In this document: one piece after another, positions 38,190 to 46,273 of the stretch | Layout: each line of letters opens with the position of its first letter | Position numbering within the stretch: the stretch's first letter is position 1 | Assembly (NCBI GenBank): GCA_965204535.1 | Contig: CBDBEV010000001.1 | Location: 2,656,001-2,720,000, forward strand | DNA length: 64,000 bases | Reading direction: 5' to 3' | Source: a bacterium | GTDB lineage: Bacteria; UBA8248 | Made by a program: the position numbers and the translations under genes | The notes under the pieces: model-generated | What the model saw: the letters and a program-made list of their open reading frames with translations, nothing else | Database searches by the model: none | Told to the model about the DNA's origin: nothing

Positions 38190-38474
38190 GGGGTTTATGA
38201 GGCGCGGTGCCTCCGGTTTTTCATCCGCGCGGCATCCTATCTTCATCCTGATGTCGGTTTGTTATCTCTTATCGGGCTGCGCCGGCGGGATTGACCCCGT
38301 AGGAGGAGTCGACCCCAAGACGCTCGACCTGGCCGATGAGGCGAGGCGCGCAAATGCGGGCTGTTGCGGGGAAATGCGCGGGTCCCAACAAACTTTTTTT
38401 ATCGCTATATCTGAGTGCGCAGCGCTCATATTTGAATGATAACTCTTTATATAACAATCATTTAATCGATCAGA

Positions 38475-38526
38475 AATTTTCAGAAATTTATCGAAAAACC
38501 CCGTAAATTTATCTGATTTTATCGAA
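38475..38526. repeat. AT-rich non-coding element with TTTATC(GA) motifs, copy 2
   Basis: 36/39 identity to 1489-1527. Confidence 0.75.
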
Positions 38527-38761
38527 AATATCATTATTTTCATTTCCATGTCGTTCCTGAATCCATTCTCGTATCGTCTCCTCGCCCCGTCTCCCGGTTC
38601 CATGAGAAAGCCTCCTCTCCCTGTGCCTCAATCCGCCGAGAGAGAAACCGCTTCCCCGCGTCGCGCGCACGATACCGCAGCGCCGGATTCCGGGGCGCAC
38701 GGCAATTGCGGGGAAATGCGGACCCGGCCCCGACCGGGGAGGCGGGATAAAACCCCCCTGA

Positions 38762-38956
38762 GGGGGTTGTTGAAAAAGGCCCATCAATCGGGGTTGGCGC
38801 GTAGGGGCGGCCCCCCGTGGCCGCCCGTGTCGGATATGTCCATCTGCGTGGCTGTGCTTCGCAGGGAGAAGCATGGGGGCCATGGACAGGCACAGGGGCC
38901 TGTCCCTACAAACCTTCTATTTGCAGGGTCCTGCGCAGACCTCTTCAACACCCCCC
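38762..38956. mobile_element. MITE-like element with terminal inverted repeats carrying GTAG REP hairpins
   Basis: Left end GGGGGTTGTTGAAAAAGG, right end CCTCTTCAACACCCCC. 38762-38909 is repeated at 39633-39779, and the core recurs inverted at ~61885-61977. Confidence 0.7.
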
Positions 38957-39133
38957 TACGGGTTCGTCTTGATACGCGGGGCGTAGGGACAACCCCCTGC
39001 GCCGGTCCGGGAGCGCGGCCTGTCCTTGCGAGGCGGTGCGGTTTTGTTCGTCGTCCCGGCGTCATCGCCGGCCGATGCGGAAGGTGTTGCGGAGTGACGA
39101 CCGGAGACGAATGCGGTTGCGTCCGCCGCCGGC

Positions 39134-39541
39134 TCAGCCGTCCTGACGCGCGGAGGGCGCGGACGTGCGGCGGATGAGCTCCCGGAGCGCCTCCATGGTC
39201 TCGCGGTGGCGCTCCCTCTGCTCCTCGCGTTCGGCGCGCAGCACGGCCATGGTTTCGCGGTGGCGCTCCTTGTGCTCCTCGCGTTCGGCGCGCAGCGCCT
39301 CCATGGTTTCGCGGTGCATCGCGTCCCGATGCCGCGCGGCCTGGCGCATGATGTAGAGGCCGTAGGCGATCAGTCCGCATTGCGCGGCCCCGACGAGGGC
39401 GGCCACCCACACGGAGGCCCACTGCGCGGCGAGGGCGGCTTCCTGGAGGGCGAGGCTCGCCTTTTGCAGGGCGAGGCTCGATTGCTGTACGACGAGGTTT
39501 GATTGCTGTACGGCGAGGCTTGCGGTTTCGTATTCCGTCAT
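39134..39541 (-). CDS. Small membrane-anchored coiled-coil repeat protein
   Basis: 135 aa: five heptads (SLAxQxx), one TM segment, then ~2.5 copies of an 18-aa repeat (HRETMxxLRAEREExxER; 54-bp DNA tandem repeat ~39187-39317); GGGAG RBS. Confidence 0.7.
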   Translation of the reverse strand: MTEYETASLAVQQSNLVVQQSSLALQKASLALQEAALAAQWASVWVAALVGAAQCGLIAYGLYIMRQAARHRDAMHRETMEALRAEREEHKERHRETMAVLRAEREEQRERHRETMEALRELIRRTSAPSARQDG

Positions 39542-39632
39542 TCGATTTTCTCCCGTGAAGCCTCGTGAGCAGCAAGTCCGGTCAGTTTCGCCCAGGGCGG
39601 TGGAGAAGTCAAAGAGCGAACGCGAGTGAGGA

Positions 39633-39779
39633 GGGGGTGTTGAAAAAGGCCCATCAATCGGGATCGGCGCGTAGGGGCGGCCCCCCGTGGCCGCCCGTAT
39701 CGGATATGTCCATCTGCGTGGCTGTGCTTCGCAGGGACAAGCATGGGGGCCTTGGACAGGCACGGAGGCCTGTCCCTAC
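39633..39779. repeat. Second direct copy of the MITE-like element (no right TIR seen)
   Basis: About 147 bp, near-identical to 38762-38909. Confidence 0.85.
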
Positions 39780-39842
39780 GGGTCGGAGGACGGACAACGC
39801 AAGGAGGCCCTGTTCCCGCGTTTCGTTGCGTTCTCCACACAC

Positions 39843-39871
39843 AAAAAAACCGGGGGGCCGAAGCCCCCCGG
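39843..39871 (-). terminator. Rho-independent terminator of porin A
   Basis: CCGGGGGG-CTTCGG-CCCCCCGG followed by a T7 run on the minus strand. Confidence 0.9.
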
Positions 39872-39913
39872 TCGTCGTCGCGTCAGGTGAGGACGCGAAC
39901 GTCCTTCATGCTG

Positions 39914-41242
39914 CTAGAAGATGTGGCGCAGCGTCCAGCCGACCGCCCAGCCGTCGTCCGGCTCAGGAGCGCCCATGCCTCTGCCGTAGTCGCCGCGCAA
40001 GATAACGGCGCCCACACCGCGAAGCTCGAGGCTCGAGTGAATCTTCCATTTGAAGCCGGCGTTGAGCTCTGTGCCGAATTCCTTCGCGTCCATCGGATTT
40101 GGAACTTTTTTCGTTGGTAGCGCGCTTTCTGCGGCATTATAAAGGGATACGCCGCCGCCCAGCGTCAGGGTCTTGCTGACCTTGAAGTCGGCCAGCCCCT
40201 CGATCACGGTCGCGCCGTTCAAGGCGCCCAAGTGTACGCTTCTGATGCCGTTGCCCAGAGACGTCCAGCGGCGCGAACTCATGATGTGGCCGCCGACGAA
40301 CCAGCCGGAACCGCCTTCCTGAGGCGTCCTGAACCGGCCGTCCTCGGTGGCCTTGGAGCCGTCATCGCCGGAGAGCATCGTGAGGTTGCCGCTAAGCTTC
40401 AGTTTGCCCAGGCTGGTGGAAGTCCTCACCAGAACGGCCCATCCCGAGAGTTCTTTGCCGCTTGAGAGGTCACCTTCCTGGATGACCATAGAACCGTTCA
40501 CGTTGAGGATGCCCACCTTCGTCTTGGCGTTTAGTCCGAGGAAGTTGTAGTCGTAGTCTTTTCCCGGTGTATTTGTTACTACCCTCTCTCCCGTAAGCGT
40601 ACCGTCCGCCTGCACGCCTGTTGTCTTGAACGTGGTCGTTGACGTTGGTTTCGTTTCGCCTCTGGAGTTGGCCACCCATGGCGAGAGCGTGAGATTGGGG
40701 GAGACCTTGATGCTCAGGCTGGCATAAGAATCCGTGTGGTCGTTGTTATCGGGGCTAGTGTCTTCTCTCGCACTGGTCATGAACGCGCTGAGCGAAATGT
40801 TTTTGCTGAGCTTGCCGTAGATCGCAATACCCGGCTCACGATGACGACCGCCGCTGTCGTAGATTTCCTTGTCCGGCGAGAAGTAGTCCGTCCGGCCCAT
40901 ACGCATGCGGAGCGAACTGCCCGGAACCGCGAAGTCGATCACCCAGCGGTTGACGCCGACAGTCTGCCGGCCGGGACCGATGGCGAAGCCGCCGTTCGCG
41001 ATTACGAACTCGGGCTCCCACACGGCCGTGACGGCGCCGCTTTTCGCCGTGAAGCGCGGACGGATGAGCGCGTCCAGGTAATTGCTTTTGTCGTCCATGT
41101 CATCGTTCCCGTCTTTGTTGACGTTTTCGCTGGAGCCGCGTACCCGGAAGAAGCCGGTCATCTTGAAGTCGGCCGCGTACGAGGGCGCTACAAACGTCGC
41201 TACGAGCGCCATCGCAAACAGAGTTAACAGAATTTTCCTCAT
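39914..41242 (-). CDS. Outer-membrane beta-barrel (porin-like) protein, paralogue A
   Basis: Signal peptide MRKILLTLFAMALVATFVAPSYA, amphipathic beta-strands, C-terminal WTLRHIF with terminal Phe; GAGGAG RBS. Confidence 0.8.
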   Translation of the reverse strand: MRKILLTLFAMALVATFVAPSYAADFKMTGFFRVRGSSENVNKDGNDDMDDKSNYLDALIRPRFTAKSGAVTAVWEPEFVIANGGFAIGPGRQTVGVNRWVIDFAVPGSSLRMRMGRTDYFSPDKEIYDSGGRHREPGIAIYGKLSKNISLSAFMTSAREDTSPDNNDHTDSYASLSIKVSPNLTLSPWVANSRGETKPTSTTTFKTTGVQADGTLTGERVVTNTPGKDYDYNFLGLNAKTKVGILNVNGSMVIQEGDLSSGKELSGWAVLVRTSTSLGKLKLSGNLTMLSGDDGSKATEDGRFRTPQEGGSGWFVGGHIMSSRRWTSLGNGIRSVHLGALNGATVIEGLADFKVSKTLTLGGGVSLYNAAESALPTKKVPNPMDAKEFGTELNAGFKWKIHSSLELRGVGAVILRGDYGRGMGAPEPDDGWAVGWTLRHIF

Positions 41243-41498
41243 TGTGCATTTCTCCTCATTGAGGTTTCACAAAAAATGTTGCCGTCTTCCTTCGTGTTCT
41301 GTGTCTGGTTTTATGGGTGCTTCTACATCTGTGCTTCGTCGCCTGTAACAGGGCTTCCCGTTCCCGCATCACCCCCTCTCTTCCATGCCGCCCCGCACGT
41401 CGACAAGGTTCTATCGAGCGAACCGGTTTTTGCCGCTTATGGACAATTCCCTGTCTGAGAAAACAGTCATTCCATTCCCCGTTTCCTCAAAGAATAGA
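41137..41498. repeat. Left arm of ~360-bp imperfect inverted repeat (partner 44571-44941)
   Basis: Its reverse complement matches 44571-44941 over the -10 box, the ~255-nt leader, RBS, signal peptide and ADFKMTGF, apart from one divergent block of ~30 nt. Confidence 0.9.
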
Positions 41499-41650
41499 GG
41501 TAAGATCGACAGGAACCCGTCACTCCGGAAGTGATGCGACTGAACGTGATCATGTAATGTAAAGATTTGTTATTATTTGCTTTAATTCGATATTTTCTTC
41601 GCCGTCGTCTCTTGCGGGCTGGCCGTGTTTTTGCTTGAATACGCTCACAC

Positions 41651-41761
41651 TTGATGCCGCTGACATGCGTTTTGATGACATATCAAGCGAGAGAGACCAC
41701 GCTTATTTCTGCTGAAACGCGCTCTCGATTGATGCCGCTGGTATGCGTTTTGATGACATAT
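41651..41761. repeat. 33-bp direct repeat x2 upstream of integrase 1 (candidate arm-type binding sites)
   Basis: TTGATGCCGCTGACATGCGTTTTGATGACATAT (41651-83) and TTGATGCCGCTGGTATGCGTTTTGATGACATAT (41729-61), 31/33 identical. Each contains two TTGATG(C/A)C motifs 21 bp apart. Confidence 0.85.
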
Positions 41762-42974
41762 GGAAATGATGGGGGTCATGCCCAGGAGAAGTGAGTTCAG
41801 ACTCACCAAACGCGCTGTCGACGCGCTTAAAACCGAAAATCGGGACACCCTCTTCTGGGACCGGGACCTGGCCGGCTTCGGGGTGCGCGTCCACGCTACG
41901 GGCAGGAAAGCCTACGTGGTGCAGTCCAGGGGACCCGGGGGGGTAAAACGCGTGACTTTAGGCCGGCACGGGGCGTTGTCGACCGGGGAGGCGAGGAAGC
42001 AGGCCGCCCTCGTCATAGACCGTATCAAGCGGGGCGAAGACCCTGGACGCAAGCCGCCCGCGGAGGAACTCACCCTGGCGGCGATTGCCGAGCGCTTCAT
42101 GCGCGCTTACGTGGAAAGGCGCCTGAAGCCGCGCACCGTCGTGGAGTACCGCACCATACTGGACAAACATGTCCTGCCGGCCCTGGGCGGGATGACGCTG
42201 GGCCGGATCGGACGGGCGGAAGTCGCCGCGTTTCATCACCGCCTCCGCCATACGCCGAGCCGGGCCAACACGTCGATCCATATCCTCTCCAGGATGTTCA
42301 ACCTGGCCGAGGCGTGGGGCCTGGCCCCGACCGGGCAGAACCCGTGCAGAAGACTGTCGCTCTACAGGACGCGCCCACGCGAGCGGTTCCTGACATTCGA
42401 GGAATACCGCCGCCTGGGCCGGTCGCTCAAAGACGCCGAGGCGGCAGGCTCCATCTGGCCGCCTGCGATCACGGCGATCAGGCTGCTCATGCTGACCGGG
42501 TGCCGGAGGAGCGAGATACTGAACCTCAAATGGGACGACGTGGACCGCACGGCGGGAGACCTCAGGCTCAGGGACGCCAAGGCGGGCCCCCGCATGGTTC
42601 CGCTGACGAATCCCGTGCGGGGGGTTCTCGACAAGCTGTCCCGGCAACCGGACAACCCGTGGGTGATCATCGGCCAGAAGCCGGGAAAGAACCTCACGGA
42701 TCTTCGCCACTACTGGTGGCCTATCCGGGAGCGGGCGGGACTCTCCGACCTGCGGATCCACGACCTCAGACACTCCTATGCGTCGAGGGCTCTGGCGCTC
42801 GGCGAGAGCCTCTACACGATCGGCAAGCTCCTGGGACACTCGACGATAACGACGACGGCGCGCTACACGCACCTGATGCTCAAGGCCGAGAAGGAGGCGG
42901 CCACCCGGGTGGGGGGGAGCATAGGCGCCCACCTGACGAACGGGAACCTCGGGGGAGAACGGCGAAGCCCATGA
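41760..42974 (+). CDS. Tyrosine recombinase/integrase 1 with N-terminal arm-binding (DUF4102-like) domain
   Basis: WDRDLAGFGVRV arm domain; catalytic TGCRRSE, DAKAG, HDLRH, LGH, TARY all intact. Confidence 0.93.
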   Translation: MEMMGVMPRRSEFRLTKRAVDALKTENRDTLFWDRDLAGFGVRVHATGRKAYVVQSRGPGGVKRVTLGRHGALSTGEARKQAALVIDRIKRGEDPGRKPPAEELTLAAIAERFMRAYVERRLKPRTVVEYRTILDKHVLPALGGMTLGRIGRAEVAAFHHRLRHTPSRANTSIHILSRMFNLAEAWGLAPTGQNPCRRLSLYRTRPRERFLTFEEYRRLGRSLKDAEAAGSIWPPAITAIRLLMLTGCRRSEILNLKWDDVDRTAGDLRLRDAKAGPRMVPLTNPVRGVLDKLSRQPDNPWVIIGQKPGKNLTDLRHYWWPIRERAGLSDLRIHDLRHSYASRALALGESLYTIGKLLGHSTITTTARYTHLMLKAEKEAATRVGGSIGAHLTNGNLGGERRSP

Positions 42975-44125
42975 TGAAAACGCTCTCGAACCGGGCGGTC
43001 GAGAAGCTTGCGGTTCAGAAGGATACGGTGTTCTGGGACGGGGATCTCACAGGCTTCGGCGTCAGGGTCTATCCCAGCGGCTCAAAAGTCTACATCGCCC
43101 ATGCGCGGGGTCCGAGAGGGCCCAAGCGGGTGGCGGTGGGCCGCCACGGCGTGATCGGCGCCGATCAGGCGCGCCAAAGGGCGGCGCTCATCATCGCCCG
43201 CATCAAGGCGGGCGAGGAAGCAATCCCGAAGCGGCTGAAGCCCACGAGCGGGCCCAGCGTGGCGGCGCTCGCCGAGCGGTATCTCACCGAATACGTCTCG
43301 GTGCGCTGCAAGCCGAGCACCGCCGCGAAGACCAGGGCGGTGGTGCGAAAGCACATCGTGCCCGCCTTGGGGAAGCTGCCGATCATGGCGCTGGAGCGGG
43401 CGCAGGTGGCGGAACTGCACCAGAGCCTGTGCGAGACGCCCGTTGTGGCGAACCTGGTCGTCCGAATCCTCCATGCGATGTACAGGCTGGCCGAGAACTG
43501 GGGGCTGGCGCCCGAGGGGTGCAACCCCTGCCGCTTGATCGTGAAATACCCCGAGCGCAAGAGGGAGCGGTTCCTGACGGATGAGGAGTTTGCGCGCCTG
43601 GGCGCCGTTCTGGAAGAAATCGAGAATCAGGGCGGGGCGTCCGCGCCCGCTCTGGCCGCCATACGCCTGCTGATGCTGACCGGGTGCCGGAAGTCCGAGA
43701 TACTCACTCTCCGCTGGGAGGACGTGGCGCTGGACGAGGGTGAGCTGAGGCTGCCGGATTCCAAGACGGGCGCGCGGGTGGTCTCGCTTCCGCCGCAGGC
43801 GGTCGCGCTCCTGGCCGCCCTCCCCCGGGTGGAGGGGAATCCCTGGGTCATTCCCGGCAGGAAGCCGGGCGCGCGCCTGGGCAGCCTCGATCACGTCTGG
43901 CGGCCCGTCCGCGCGCGGGCGGGTCTCGATGACGTGCGGCTCCACGACCTTCGCCATTCCTACGCCTCCAGAGCGCTCGCGCTGGGAGAAGGGCTCCCCG
44001 TCATCGCGAAGCTCCTTGGCCACGCCCACGTGCAAACCACGGCGCGTTACGCGCACCTGGCGCGCGATTCCGCGCACGAGGCGGCGGAGCGGGTTGCGGG
44101 GAGCATCGCGGAAGATATACTCTGA
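42971..44125 (+). CDS. Tyrosine recombinase/integrase 2, paralogue of integrase 1
   Basis: ATGA overlap with integrase 1; WDGDLTGFGVRV, TGCRKSE, DSKTG, HDLRH, LGH, TARY intact. Confidence 0.93.
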   Translation: MMKTLSNRAVEKLAVQKDTVFWDGDLTGFGVRVYPSGSKVYIAHARGPRGPKRVAVGRHGVIGADQARQRAALIIARIKAGEEAIPKRLKPTSGPSVAALAERYLTEYVSVRCKPSTAAKTRAVVRKHIVPALGKLPIMALERAQVAELHQSLCETPVVANLVVRILHAMYRLAENWGLAPEGCNPCRLIVKYPERKRERFLTDEEFARLGAVLEEIENQGGASAPALAAIRLLMLTGCRKSEILTLRWEDVALDEGELRLPDSKTGARVVSLPPQAVALLAALPRVEGNPWVIPGRKPGARLGSLDHVWRPVRARAGLDDVRLHDLRHSYASRALALGEGLPVIAKLLGHAHVQTTARYAHLARDSAHEAAERVAGSIAEDIL

Positions 44126-44441
44126 GGAAGCCGGTTGGCGAATTTCCGGCGGCGCGCGGCGGCGGGTTCCGCCCCGTTCGCCGGCGAGAAGAGCCGACCC
44201 TTTTTCTATAAGAATCAGGAATAGATTTTTCCGGCGGCATCCATCGCCCGATGAGTATCCCAATCGGCGGGGCTCGGGAAACGGCGGGTTGCATGAACGG
44301 ATATGGGCCGATTTTGGGGGAGTTGCAAGGCGTATTTCAGAAGCCTTTTCGCCCGGCGAATGAAAATTTTTTTCTCGGGCTGCAAAGACCGGGGCAAGGC
44401 GGTGAATTTCACGTCGTTTTTTCCTGACGCGCAATTTTTCG

Positions 44442-44454
44442 TAAAAGTTTGATT
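44442..44454 (-). promoter_or_regulatory. Candidate IHF-binding site
   Basis: AATCAA-ACTT-TTA matches WATCAANNNNTTR in an AT-rich tract; a second match AATCAA-GATG-TTG lies at 44766-44778 (+). Confidence 0.45.
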
Positions 44455-44549
44455 TTGTTATTGTTAAACCTTTCATTCCATTTCGGAAGAGAGGGGGAAG
44501 TTCGTATTGTAAAGGAAATGGTTTTTTGGATTTCCCTTGGGATTGTTTG

Positions 44550-44578
44550 TTGACAAAGAGGATCATCTTTTCTATTCT
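44550..44578 (+). promoter_or_regulatory. Sigma70-type promoter for porin B, straddling the inverted-repeat boundary
   Basis: TTGACA (44550-55), 17-bp spacer, TATTCT (44573-78); AT-rich upstream sequence. Confidence 0.75.
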
Positions 44579-44941
44579 TTGGAGAAACGGGGAATGGAAT
44601 GATTGTTTTCTCAGACAGGGAATTGTCTACATAAGCGGCAAAAATCGGTTCGCTCGATAGAACCTTGTCGACGTACGGGGCGGCATGGAAGAGAAGAGAG
44701 GGGGTGATGCGGGAACGGGAAGCCCTGTTGCAGACGACGAAGCACGAATGCAGACACATTGACAAAATCAAGATGTTGAACACGAAGGAAGACGGCAACA
44801 TTTTTTTATGAAACCTCGATGAGGAGAAATACACATGAGGAAAATTCTGTTAACTCTATTTGCGCTGGCGCTCTTAGCGACGTTTGTAGCGCCCTCGTAT
44901 GCGGCCGACTTCAAGATGACCGGCTTCTACCGGGTACGCGG
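44571..44941. repeat. Right arm of the inverted repeat (partner 41137-41498)
   Basis: Direct comparison with the reverse complement of the left arm. Confidence 0.9.
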
Positions 44942-46127
44942 TATCGCCGGCAACAACGGCGACCGCAACGACGACGTGGACGACAGCGCCCAGGGCTTCG
45001 ACGCCTTGACGAGGCCGCGCTTCACCGCAAAGGTCGATGGCGGCAAAATCTGGTCCATCTGGGAAATCGACTGGTATGAGGCCCGTACTGAGAATGACAG
45101 GACCCCCAATGACGCGAACGCGAACATCCTGTTCGGCCGCAGCGGCGGCCGCGTCGGCGTGGGCACCAACCGCTGGGTGGTCGACTTCGCGATTCCGGGC
45201 AGCGCGCTCCGCGCCCGCTGGGGCCGGACGGACTACACCTCCCCGGACAAGCAGATTTTCGACAGCGCTGGCGCCACCCGTTGGCCGGGCTTCGCGGTCT
45301 ACGGCAAGCTCAGCAAGAACATGTCGCTCAGCATGTTCATGACCAGGAAGGGTATGAGTGGTAGGGGACGCACCATCGGCCCGGAAGATGAGAACAATGA
45401 CAGCTACTATGCGTCTGTGGGCATCAAGGTCACCCCGGCCATGACGCTGACTCCCTGGGTGGCCCTCTCCCGCGACGGCAAGGGCAGGTCCCTCACCTAC
45501 GCCGCCCTGAACGCCAAGACGAAAGTGGGCATCGTCGGCCTGAACCTCTCGGGCGTTTCGGTGGGTGGAGATGCGAAAGATGGTACGGATGCCTCCGGCT
45601 GGGCGCTTCTGGCAAGCGGCAAGGCCGGCCTGGGCAAACTGACGCTCATCGGCACCGCCATCATGCTCTCCGGCGACGACGATGACGACGACATGGAAGA
45701 GGGCAGATTCTCTCATCTGATGCCCGGCGGCGGTCAGTTCATCTCCGGCGTCATGGTCACCGACCGCAGCACCACAGGCGGCATCACGAGCTTCCGGGCT
45801 CGTTTGCCCAGAGCCGGCGGTACCAGGAATGCCAGGTTCCAGAATCTGAACGGCGCGGTCGTGATCGGCGCAGATGCCGTGTACAAGGTCAGCAAGACTT
45901 TCAAGGTAGCCGCCGGCGTTCACATCTACCAGTCAGCGGAAGACGACGACATGGGCAACACTGACTACGGCACCGAGTTCAACACCAGCTTCGAGTGGAA
46001 GATCTATCCGAAGCTCAGGCTCAGGAGTCAATTCGGGTACTTGGCCACGGGCGACTACGGTTTAGCGGCCGACGATCCGGACGACGACACCTGGACGGCG
46101 ATGTTCTCGCTGGACCACTTCTTCTAG
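44835..46127 (+). CDS. Outer-membrane beta-barrel (porin-like) protein, paralogue B
   Basis: Near-identical signal peptide to paralogue A; shared blocks NRWVxDFAxPGS, GRTDYxSPDK, YGKLSKN, LSGDD, LNGA, GTExN; ends SLDHFF. Confidence 0.8.
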   Translation: MRKILLTLFALALLATFVAPSYAADFKMTGFYRVRGIAGNNGDRNDDVDDSAQGFDALTRPRFTAKVDGGKIWSIWEIDWYEARTENDRTPNDANANILFGRSGGRVGVGTNRWVVDFAIPGSALRARWGRTDYTSPDKQIFDSAGATRWPGFAVYGKLSKNMSLSMFMTRKGMSGRGRTIGPEDENNDSYYASVGIKVTPAMTLTPWVALSRDGKGRSLTYAALNAKTKVGIVGLNLSGVSVGGDAKDGTDASGWALLASGKAGLGKLTLIGTAIMLSGDDDDDDMEEGRFSHLMPGGGQFISGVMVTDRSTTGGITSFRARLPRAGGTRNARFQNLNGAVVIGADAVYKVSKTFKVAAGVHIYQSAEDDDMGNTDYGTEFNTSFEWKIYPKLRLRSQFGYLATGDYGLAADDPDDDTWTAMFSLDHFF

Positions 46128-46169
46128 GAACTTGATGGACGCTCGCGTCCTCATTTGACGCGACGGCGA

Positions 46170-46199
46170 CCGGGGGGCTTCGGCCCCCCGGTTTTTTTT
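46170..46199 (+). terminator. Rho-independent terminator of porin B
   Basis: CCGGGGGG-CTTCGG-CCCCCCGG followed by T8; part of the ~90-bp outer inverted repeat 46122-46212 / 39830-39919. Confidence 0.9.
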
Positions 46200-46273
46200 G
46201 TGTGTGGAGAACACTTTGCCGTGCCTTTTTAACTAACATTTATGGCTTATTTGGTTCGGTATATACGAATTGT

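Follow-up and report, generated by a model that had tools for sequence, protein, structure and literature searches.

A candidate site-specific switch of one split promoter among several porin genes in a sponge-associated bacterium

Introduction

How can two porin genes be served by a single complete promoter, and does the integrase pair lying between them decide which gene receives it? The question is raised by a locus in a 64,000-nucleotide stretch of bacterial DNA (the window; C2:2656001-2720000 of genome G000, lineage UBA8248, which comprises 4.56 Mb in two contigs, C1 and C2); coordinates are those of the window unless a contig is named. Two divergently oriented genes for outer-membrane β-barrel paralogues, porA (39914..41242, minus strand; 442 amino acids) and porB (44835..46127, plus strand; 430 amino acids, C-terminal Phe), flank two tyrosine recombinase genes, int1 and int2. 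A first-pass annotation, made from the letters of the window, had proposed that a crossover in the inverted 5' arms of the two porin genes inverts the integrase segment between them and passes the promoter from porB to porA. Based on the observations presented here, we consider it rather probable that the locus is a site-specific phase-variation switch in which one promoter serves several porins through an 11-bp core, with the adjacent integrase pair as the likely agent and inversion as the probable route.

Results

The porin promoter is split at an 11-bp core

The porA and porB reading frames are 45% identical at the protein level across 472 alignment columns, and their 5' regions form inverted arms of 89.5% identity, as first described. 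Arm A (41137..41498, minus strand) and arm B (44571..44941, plus strand) each comprise a -10 box, the 5' leader and the start of the porin gene. The sequence, when re-read, also bore out that the repeat ends at the -10 box, two bases inside TATTCT, and that TTGACA is present on the right only. There, a complete sigma-70-type promoter, TTGACA-17-TATTCT (44550..44578, plus strand), stands in front of porB, with its -35 box (44550-44555) in the inner segment and its -10 box (44573-44578) in the arm; the left counterpart reads CGGGTT, and porA, which has no -35 box as assembled, is predicted to be silent. By itself such a promoter pattern is weak (3 matches versus 1.6 +/- 1.3 in shuffled sequences), but the match carries weight because it is conserved in relatives.

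What splits the promoter is an 11-bp core, TCTATTCTTTG, at the inner edge of the arms. It lies in inverted orientation at the silent site adjoining int1 (41488..41498, minus strand) and at the promoter site (44571..44581, plus strand) and, as assembled, again at C2:1071997, in the arm of a third paralogue, porC. The genome holds four occurrences, namely the three arms and the promoter of a tRNA-Val gene (TTGACA-18-TATTCT). Beyond the core, the two sides differ. The silent upstream, or U region (41499..41777, plus strand), is AT-rich, lacks a -35 box, is homologous to the upstream regions of sister integrase pairs and contains two 56-bp direct repeats with a 78-bp period (41628..41761, plus strand), which are candidate arm-type binding sites. 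The other side (44126..44570, plus strand) represents the ancestral porin upstream with its -35 box and is homologous to the DNA preceding single porins in relatives.

Swapped promoter junctions coexist in the population

We read the contigs that cover 44480-44660 in three sequencing runs (X1, X2 and X3), listing all 13 pieces; the runs that hold the stretch include sponge metagenomes (shares 0.37 and 0.27). Two junctions absent from the assembly were found: the promoter followed by arm A/C in two of the three runs, and the porC upstream region followed by arm B in all three. None of the 19 31-mers of either junction occurs in the assembly, and the junctions therefore derive from reads. In X2, three 49-bp pieces represent promoter plus arm B (depth 55), promoter plus arm A/C (two other letters, depth 77.1) and porC upstream plus arm B (depth 78.4), depths that are not to be equated with cell shares. 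X3 contributes a 2890-bp integrase contig with A/C letters at its end and a second contig, of 394 bp, that connects the porC upstream to 152 bp of arm B. In X1, both the promoter and the porC upstream are joined to arm B, which itself has single-copy depth, so that both states are needed to account for it. Moreover, the integrase contig ends at 44600 in X1 and at 44581 in X2, where the new junctions would branch, and the flanking contigs of these two runs show 0 other letters relative to the window over multiple kilobases.

The letter directly after the 11-mer follows the partner arm, which places the crossover inside the 11-bp core, at the edge of the homology, and not in the longer identical blocks (24-37 bp) within the arms. 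The first-pass proposal of a crossover anywhere in the 360-bp arms thus gives way to a crossover in the core. Its promoter switch stands in that the promoter is split at the crossover and swapped junctions are present, and finds no support in the partner, which as seen is porC. Both states coexist in the population for the promoter/porC-upstream pair; at the DNA level the switch is real, and it is larger than first proposed.

The new junctions might be chimeras of library preparation or assembly, given that the library types are not on record and that depth is uneven in one run. We regard this as very improbable, however, as the junctions are reciprocal, have native-like depth, appear in three runs, contain 31-mers absent from the assembly and are joined through no more than 11 bp of identity.

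The partner locus porC and the geometry of the chromosome

porC (C2:1071741-1070533, minus strand) encodes a 402-residue protein with about 43-55% identity to porA and porB. It is located 1.63 Mb away in the assembly and has the same arm (98% identical to arm A over 340-343 bp, from C2:1071997 downwards), no -35 box and no adjacent integrase. Its upstream region is 79% like 41499-41760, with the same 78-bp-period repeats, and a terminator tail is common to all three porin genes (88-93% identity). The FG-GAP gene that flanks porC in G000 adjoins the porin locus in 14 of 17 genomes, and the CoA-transferase region left of porA runs, in five of five relatives, into the FAA-hydrolase gene found right of porC in G000. 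Since the neighbours of the relatives' locus are split between the porA and porC sides, G000 has been rearranged between these two loci.

The two loci are placed on opposite sides of dnaA, with 797 kb between that gene and the porC site and 830 kb between it and the promoter site. In the assembly, arms B and C have opposite orientations, and a single crossover there would invert 1.63 Mb symmetrically about dnaA. This symmetry speaks for tolerance only, as it is also found for the two loci in G002, a genome with a single porin. porC is part of a block of about 1.04 Mb (C2 about 0.46-1.50 Mb) that opposes the replichore direction (40 G002 samples, 39 mapped); the block has its ends in mobile DNA and is either a real recent inversion or a mis-join. 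The same block (C2 about 460000-1499131) puts the only 16S gene found (C2:1085642) head-on to replication. GC skew was considered as an arbiter of the true state (cumulative +62 as assembled, +2 after inversion) and was not counted, because both states keep about equal amounts of wrong-way DNA. The sister integrase pair I4 was likewise set aside as the maker of the 1.04-Mb inversion, as the half sites at C2:1499131 and 459994 fit integration plus a separate break equally. Both ends of contig C2 match C1 near 192-207 kb.

Relatives carry one promoter per porin pair

The porin is present in all 22 other genomes of the genus. Wide regions were read in 18 of these, plus a short contig of G005; G004, G009 and G019 were not read widely. 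A divergent porin pair with integrases is found on one contig in G011, G012, G013, G014, G016 and G020 and over two contigs in G021, while G005 shows one side of a paired locus. Eleven relatives have a single porin with a promoter and no adjacent integrase. A divergent pair without integrases, which the first-pass annotation had named as speaking for a simple duplication, was seen in none of the relatives examined.

Each of the eight paired loci, that of G000 among them, has TTGACA at one porin and one only. In seven of them the promoter points to the serC-side porin, in G020 to the far one. The inner segment of G020 is collinear with that of G013 but reversed relative to serC, while the serC-side porins of the two genomes are 88% identical. 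The proposed inversion of the 3.07-kb segment is thus matched by G020, flipped relative to serC where its sister G013 is not, and unmatched in the runs, where its junction is missing from all three. Silent and promoter porins are inverted relative to each other in seven of seven single-contig loci, which argues for inversion, with start-to-start distances of about 3.3-3.6 kb at six loci and 21 kb in G014. At all 10 silent sites the homology has the same edge, and each of the nine silent porins that were translated is full-length. Among metagenome contigs, three loci were found, one of them relevant and showing the silent side only; 101 candidate stretches of viral contigs held no porin relative.

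Do these data reflect one past rearrangement, frozen in two near-identical co-occurring lineages with no ongoing switch? Such a reading would be in line with the finding of two states only in one study and with the single orientation of seven of eight paired loci, and integration at the -10 box alone would fix the homology edge. We nevertheless judge it improbable: two samples contain both states, with 0 other letters in the multi-kilobase flanks, an independent flip took place at the same base in G020, and silent porins have stayed full-length.

Alternatively, whole porins could trade expression and silent slots through gene conversion or through a pair of crossovers, one in the core and one in the terminator tail; expression would change just as in the switch, but no megabase inversion would be involved. 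The 3' tail common to all three genes would offer the second site, porin alleles are reassorted between slots across species, and such a swap works in any orientation, so that it survives a mis-join of the 1.04-Mb block and, given that mis-join, becomes viable in its two-crossover form. The terminator block is longer than the 31-letter words, which puts a second crossover beyond the resolution of the contigs, and contigs cannot phase the far ends of the exchange. A whole-cassette flip at the terminators would match the G020 picture equally. However, a swap does not require the inversion seen in all seven single-contig loci, and G011 and G012 retain slot-specific alleles (95% identity far to far, 92% serC to serC, 83-85% across). 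One-way conversion, moreover, is at odds with the equal depth of both new junctions in X2 (77.1 and 78.4). We hold an exchange of cassettes to be unlikely, if less so than a frozen polymorphism, and continue to favour inversion through the core.

The porA type occupies the serC slot in most relatives and the silent slot in G000. Porin alleles (L031-L050) also cross species, the far porin of G013 being 88% identical to the single porin of G008 and that of G016 77% identical to the single porin of G006; at the sequence level, this suggests transfer and diversifying selection. G019 (L022; C1:2848518-2851936, 2441330-2444637) contains two tandem direct porin pairs with no close int2 match, which by sequence represents another arrangement for keeping several porins.

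The integrase pair belongs to a mobile family

int1 (41760..42974, plus strand; start probably at 41778 from alignment with relatives) and int2 (42971..44125, plus strand) overlap by 4 bp and encode arm-type tyrosine recombinases of 384-404 amino acids with 53% identity. Both match PF13356, PF14659 and PF00589 over the Pfam cut-offs: the arm-binding domain PF13356, which we take to be DUF4102, scores 46 and 34 bits (cut-off 27), and the SAM-like core-binding domain PF14659 is over its cut-off as well. The motifs TGCR, HDLRH, LGH and ARY.H are intact, in agreement with the first-pass statement that the arms enclose only two intact tyrosine recombinases. Catalytic R, H-x-x-R, H and Y motifs are present in eight of eight int1 and nine of nine int2 porin-linked copies, and dN/dS relative to G000 is 0.20-0.44 in 15 of 15 comparisons. 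The porin-locus integrases are intact and under purifying selection. Porin-linked int1 forms one group (8/8, SH-like support 100).

The pair is not unique. The family has 12 loci in G000, 11 tandem pairs and one single copy with 64-74% identity, and matches in 16 of the 22 other genomes of the genus; relatives also occur in metagenome-assembled genomes (MAGs) of Alpha- and Gammaproteobacteria, and the closest int2 relatives are labelled Nitrospinota, Nitrospinaceae or unclassified. At 4 of 11 other integrase loci, an 11-bp core lies 216-220 bp upstream of int1. This core, ATTTATCGAAA, precedes the sister pairs I4, I5, I6 and I10 and has 42 copies in the genome versus a shuffled mean of 0.5. 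The I4 core matches an empty site in G002, and the U region of the porin locus aligns with the upstream of I4, with the I4 core within about 15 columns. Also, a repeat family at 38345-38730 (27 genome hits of at least 100 bp) carries ATTTATCGAAA, and by sequence the ATTTATCGAAA repeats look like a multi-copy attB family. An 8.8-kb element with a sister integrase pair at its head is present three times (C2:345893, C2:2956530 and C1:183476; 94-99.8% identity), and a lone int2 relative in a gammaproteobacterial MAG (L088:5574-7481) is flanked by 53-bp inverted repeats (87%).

Inverted arms surround the integrases at 4 of 72 scanned loci, and three of the four are porin loci. Could the integrases, then, be passengers of a mobile element that duplicated the porin, with RecA recombining the 360-bp arms? 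That the pair stems from a mobile family, of which G000 has 12 loci and other sponge-associated genomes have many, that inverted arms are seen at just these few loci and that the arms are 88-98% identical all fit this explanation. It is, however, hard to reconcile with a crossover within an 11-bp block at the extreme edge of the homology, 11 bp being too short for RecA recombination, with the identical edge at 10 of 10 silent sites or with intact porin-locus integrases under purifying selection. We consider homologous recombination about as improbable as a frozen polymorphism, and the integrase pair remains the likely agent in the site-specific switch that we favour.

The porins and the surroundings of the locus

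A predicted model of porB (pLDDT 68) contains an N-terminal helix and 18 strands. In Foldseek it matched Campylobacter jejuni MOMP (5ldt), Pseudomonas aeruginosa AlgE and OccK (E 5e-16 to 1e-14; TM-score 0.58-0.66, with only 9-15% identity). Signal peptide, strand number, C-terminal Phe and barrel fold place the modelled porB among 18-stranded outer-membrane barrels, a class to which porA and porC are assigned by homology to porB. The porins match NF033939 (NCBIfam DESULF_POR1) with 59.1 and 61.8 bits (E 3e-16 for porA and 5e-17), below the curated cut-off of 250 and hence outside that family; a PDB sequence search with the porin profile gave a single match (E 0.25) that is not meaningful.

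The 3' tails with intrinsic terminators of porA (39830..39933, minus strand; stem 39848-39873) and porB (46108..46212, plus strand; stem 46168-46193) are inverted and 88% identical, terminator included. As the tail is also common to both genes, the duplicated unit measures ~1.65 kb. Rfam returned three matches (E 0.1-0.69), all far under the gathering scores.

Beyond porA lies repeat R (38702..39920, no strand assigned), 1219 bp with 99.4% identity to the DNA downstream of porC. A small open reading frame at 39137-39538 (minus strand) has internal 21- and 54-bp repeats, matches no Pfam family over cut-off, has an identical copy beside porC and more than 12 weaker relatives elsewhere in the genome. 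A 147-bp REP-like repeat pair (38763-38909 and 39633-39779) is built from a unit with 206 genome hits. At 38198-38345 is the 5' stub of a gene that lies between the CoA-transferase and FAA-hydrolase genes in relatives, whole in four of five and broken in G002 too; the stub marks the entry point of the porin module. Finally, the DNA at 44150-44230 resembles the 3' end of the FG-GAP gene found ahead of the porin in relatives (75-83% identity in their loci) and is apparently a displaced copy of it, although BLAST against the FG-GAP copy of G000 detected nothing.

Discussion

A mechanism consistent with these findings would be as follows. Int1 and Int2 would bind the core and the repeats of the U region, as in an attP-like site, and recombine it with the bare, attB-like promoter site, thereby transferring the -35 half-promoter onto the -10 arm of another porin. 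The predicted outcome is that one porin is switched on as the other falls silent. The reaction would be reversible because both products again hold a promoter site and a U site. Going by the assembly, exchange with porC would invert 1.63 Mb about the origin and leave the integrase segment between porC and porA, from where a local flip could add porA as a third state. The benefit might be a surface receptor changed against phage or host recognition. In a bolder and more tentative version, a tandem pair of mobile-element integrases would have been domesticated to choose among three porins by reassembling a promoter from its -35 and -10 halves; one of its programmed moves would be to turn round 1.63 Mb, or 36% of the chromosome, reversibly and symmetrically about the origin, through an 11-bp site. 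The sister pairs, whose own 11-bp core has 42 copies, may likewise reshuffle symbiont chromosomes.

Several points weigh against this interpretation. All three runs come from one study and two samples and may include the source of the assembly. Contigs alone were available, and depth in X2 ranges from 33.8 to 118.6 between neighbouring unique contigs. The transfer of the promoter to porC is assigned by parsimony, since arms A and C are identical across the junction. The junction expected from a local 3.07-kb flip (41499 side plus arm B) was found in none of the three runs, which falls short of showing its absence, since contigs drop rare variants; together with the shared direction of seven of eight loci, this makes the local flip a rare or biased event. 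The inverted orientation of arms B and C depends on the 1.04-Mb block being assembled against its replichore; should this be a mis-join, the arms would be direct repeats, between which one crossover would split the chromosome. With regard to the enzymes, porin-linked int2 falls into two groups, not one (2 changes), the ten other tandem pairs and the single copy could act in trans, and reading by eye revealed no clear inverted core-binding repeats flanking the 11-mer. Finally, TCTATTCTTT is intact at 19 of 19 sites in integrase-bearing loci and in 6 of 11 single-porin loci, a comparison that is descriptive only, as the kin are not independent.

If the switch operates as we suggest, a main surface pore would phase-vary in an uncultured sponge-associated lineage. 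With the crossover between the -35 and -10 boxes, any copy starting at the -10 box would be a ready silent cassette at any distance. The locus would also show how arm-type integrases are domesticated while their family is still mobile, and a single genus offers all the stages: one porin, adjacent porins, porins 21 kb apart and porins at megabase distance. Tools that seek short, nearby inverted repeats would miss a distant partner, and the 11-bp core with its split-promoter read-out could serve as a genetic switch.

How does the locus compare with known systems? In fimS of Escherichia coli, the whole promoter lies inside a short invertible element. Here, unlike in fimS and the invertible promoters of Bacteroides fragilis, the crossover separates the -35 from the -10 box; only the -35 box is inside the segment, and the -10 box belongs to the core common to all arms. 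The enzymes also differ from the FimB/FimE type (~200 amino acids, catalytic domain only), as they have an arm domain and score 13-18 bits against 221-222 for NF007370/NF007371, and from RIT elements, as there are two recombinases, both with arm domains, versus three in tandem. As in E. coli fimS with FimB/FimE (PMC11868660) and in B. fragilis, where BF2766/Tsr19 act on IVp-I/IVp-II and Tsr0667 on SusC/SusD shufflons (PMC4747536), a tyrosine recombinase lies beside the site, and the orientation of the promoter would determine which surface structure is made. Common features are also that a single enzyme can act at sites both close by and far away and, with fim, that there are two recombinases. 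In contrast, the distant sites of B. fragilis invert locally, whereas the recombining sites described here are 1.63 Mb apart as assembled.

Switches that share one promoter among paralogues include Campylobacter fetus sap, Dichelobacter nodosus omp1, Mycoplasma vsa/vsp/vpma and Ureaplasma mba. As in sap, pilin, omp1, vsa and mba, one promoter faces divergent surface paralogues with conserved 5' ends, and expression is either/or by inversion, which is a prediction in the present case. The sap inversion is RecA-dependent and occurs within long 5' homology, Piv of Moraxella bovis is not a tyrosine recombinase, and the mycoplasma systems employ Xer-like enzymes and are confined to one cluster. To our knowledge, none of the sap, pilin, omp1, mycoplasma and Ureaplasma systems splits the promoter boxes or uses a porin. 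Published examples of this class are Ureaplasma UU172 (PMC3047005) and the M. bovis pilin inversion (PMC11868660).

Large inversions are represented by the reversible hsdMS-mediated inversion of Staphylococcus aureus (PMC6778178), the CampMu inversions of up to 590 kb in C. jejuni (PMC1950947) and the inversion driven by the mobile-element tyrosine integrase of Thermococcus pTN3 (PMC5495485). As proposed for the present locus, these rearrangements turn round much of the chromosome, exist side by side in subpopulations and can alter phenotype or phage sensitivity. They depend on long homologous repeats or low sequence specificity, whereas the present system has a fixed 11-bp promoter core and would select a gene directly.

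By domain description, Int1 and Int2 resemble the IntSXT subgroup of arm-binding tyrosine recombinases with DUF4102, single integrases of integrative and conjugative elements, islands and phages (PMC8138268), in combining an arm domain (PF13356) with SAM-like core-binding and catalytic domains; also like IntSXT, the sister pairs adjoin an 11-bp att-like core. They differ in forming a tandem pair that is kept at one chromosomal locus across species. The word "porin" has 0 occurrences in the main text of a systematic survey of gene-altering inversions whose supplements list predicted loci (PMC9881135), and the literature searched, mostly non-subscription, yielded neither a split-promoter porin switch nor a large reversible inversion through a promoter core. 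Inversion-based phase variation of the surface is well known; the split promoter, the tandem arm-type enzymes and the distant partner set the present system apart, and it is best regarded as a variant of that known theme.

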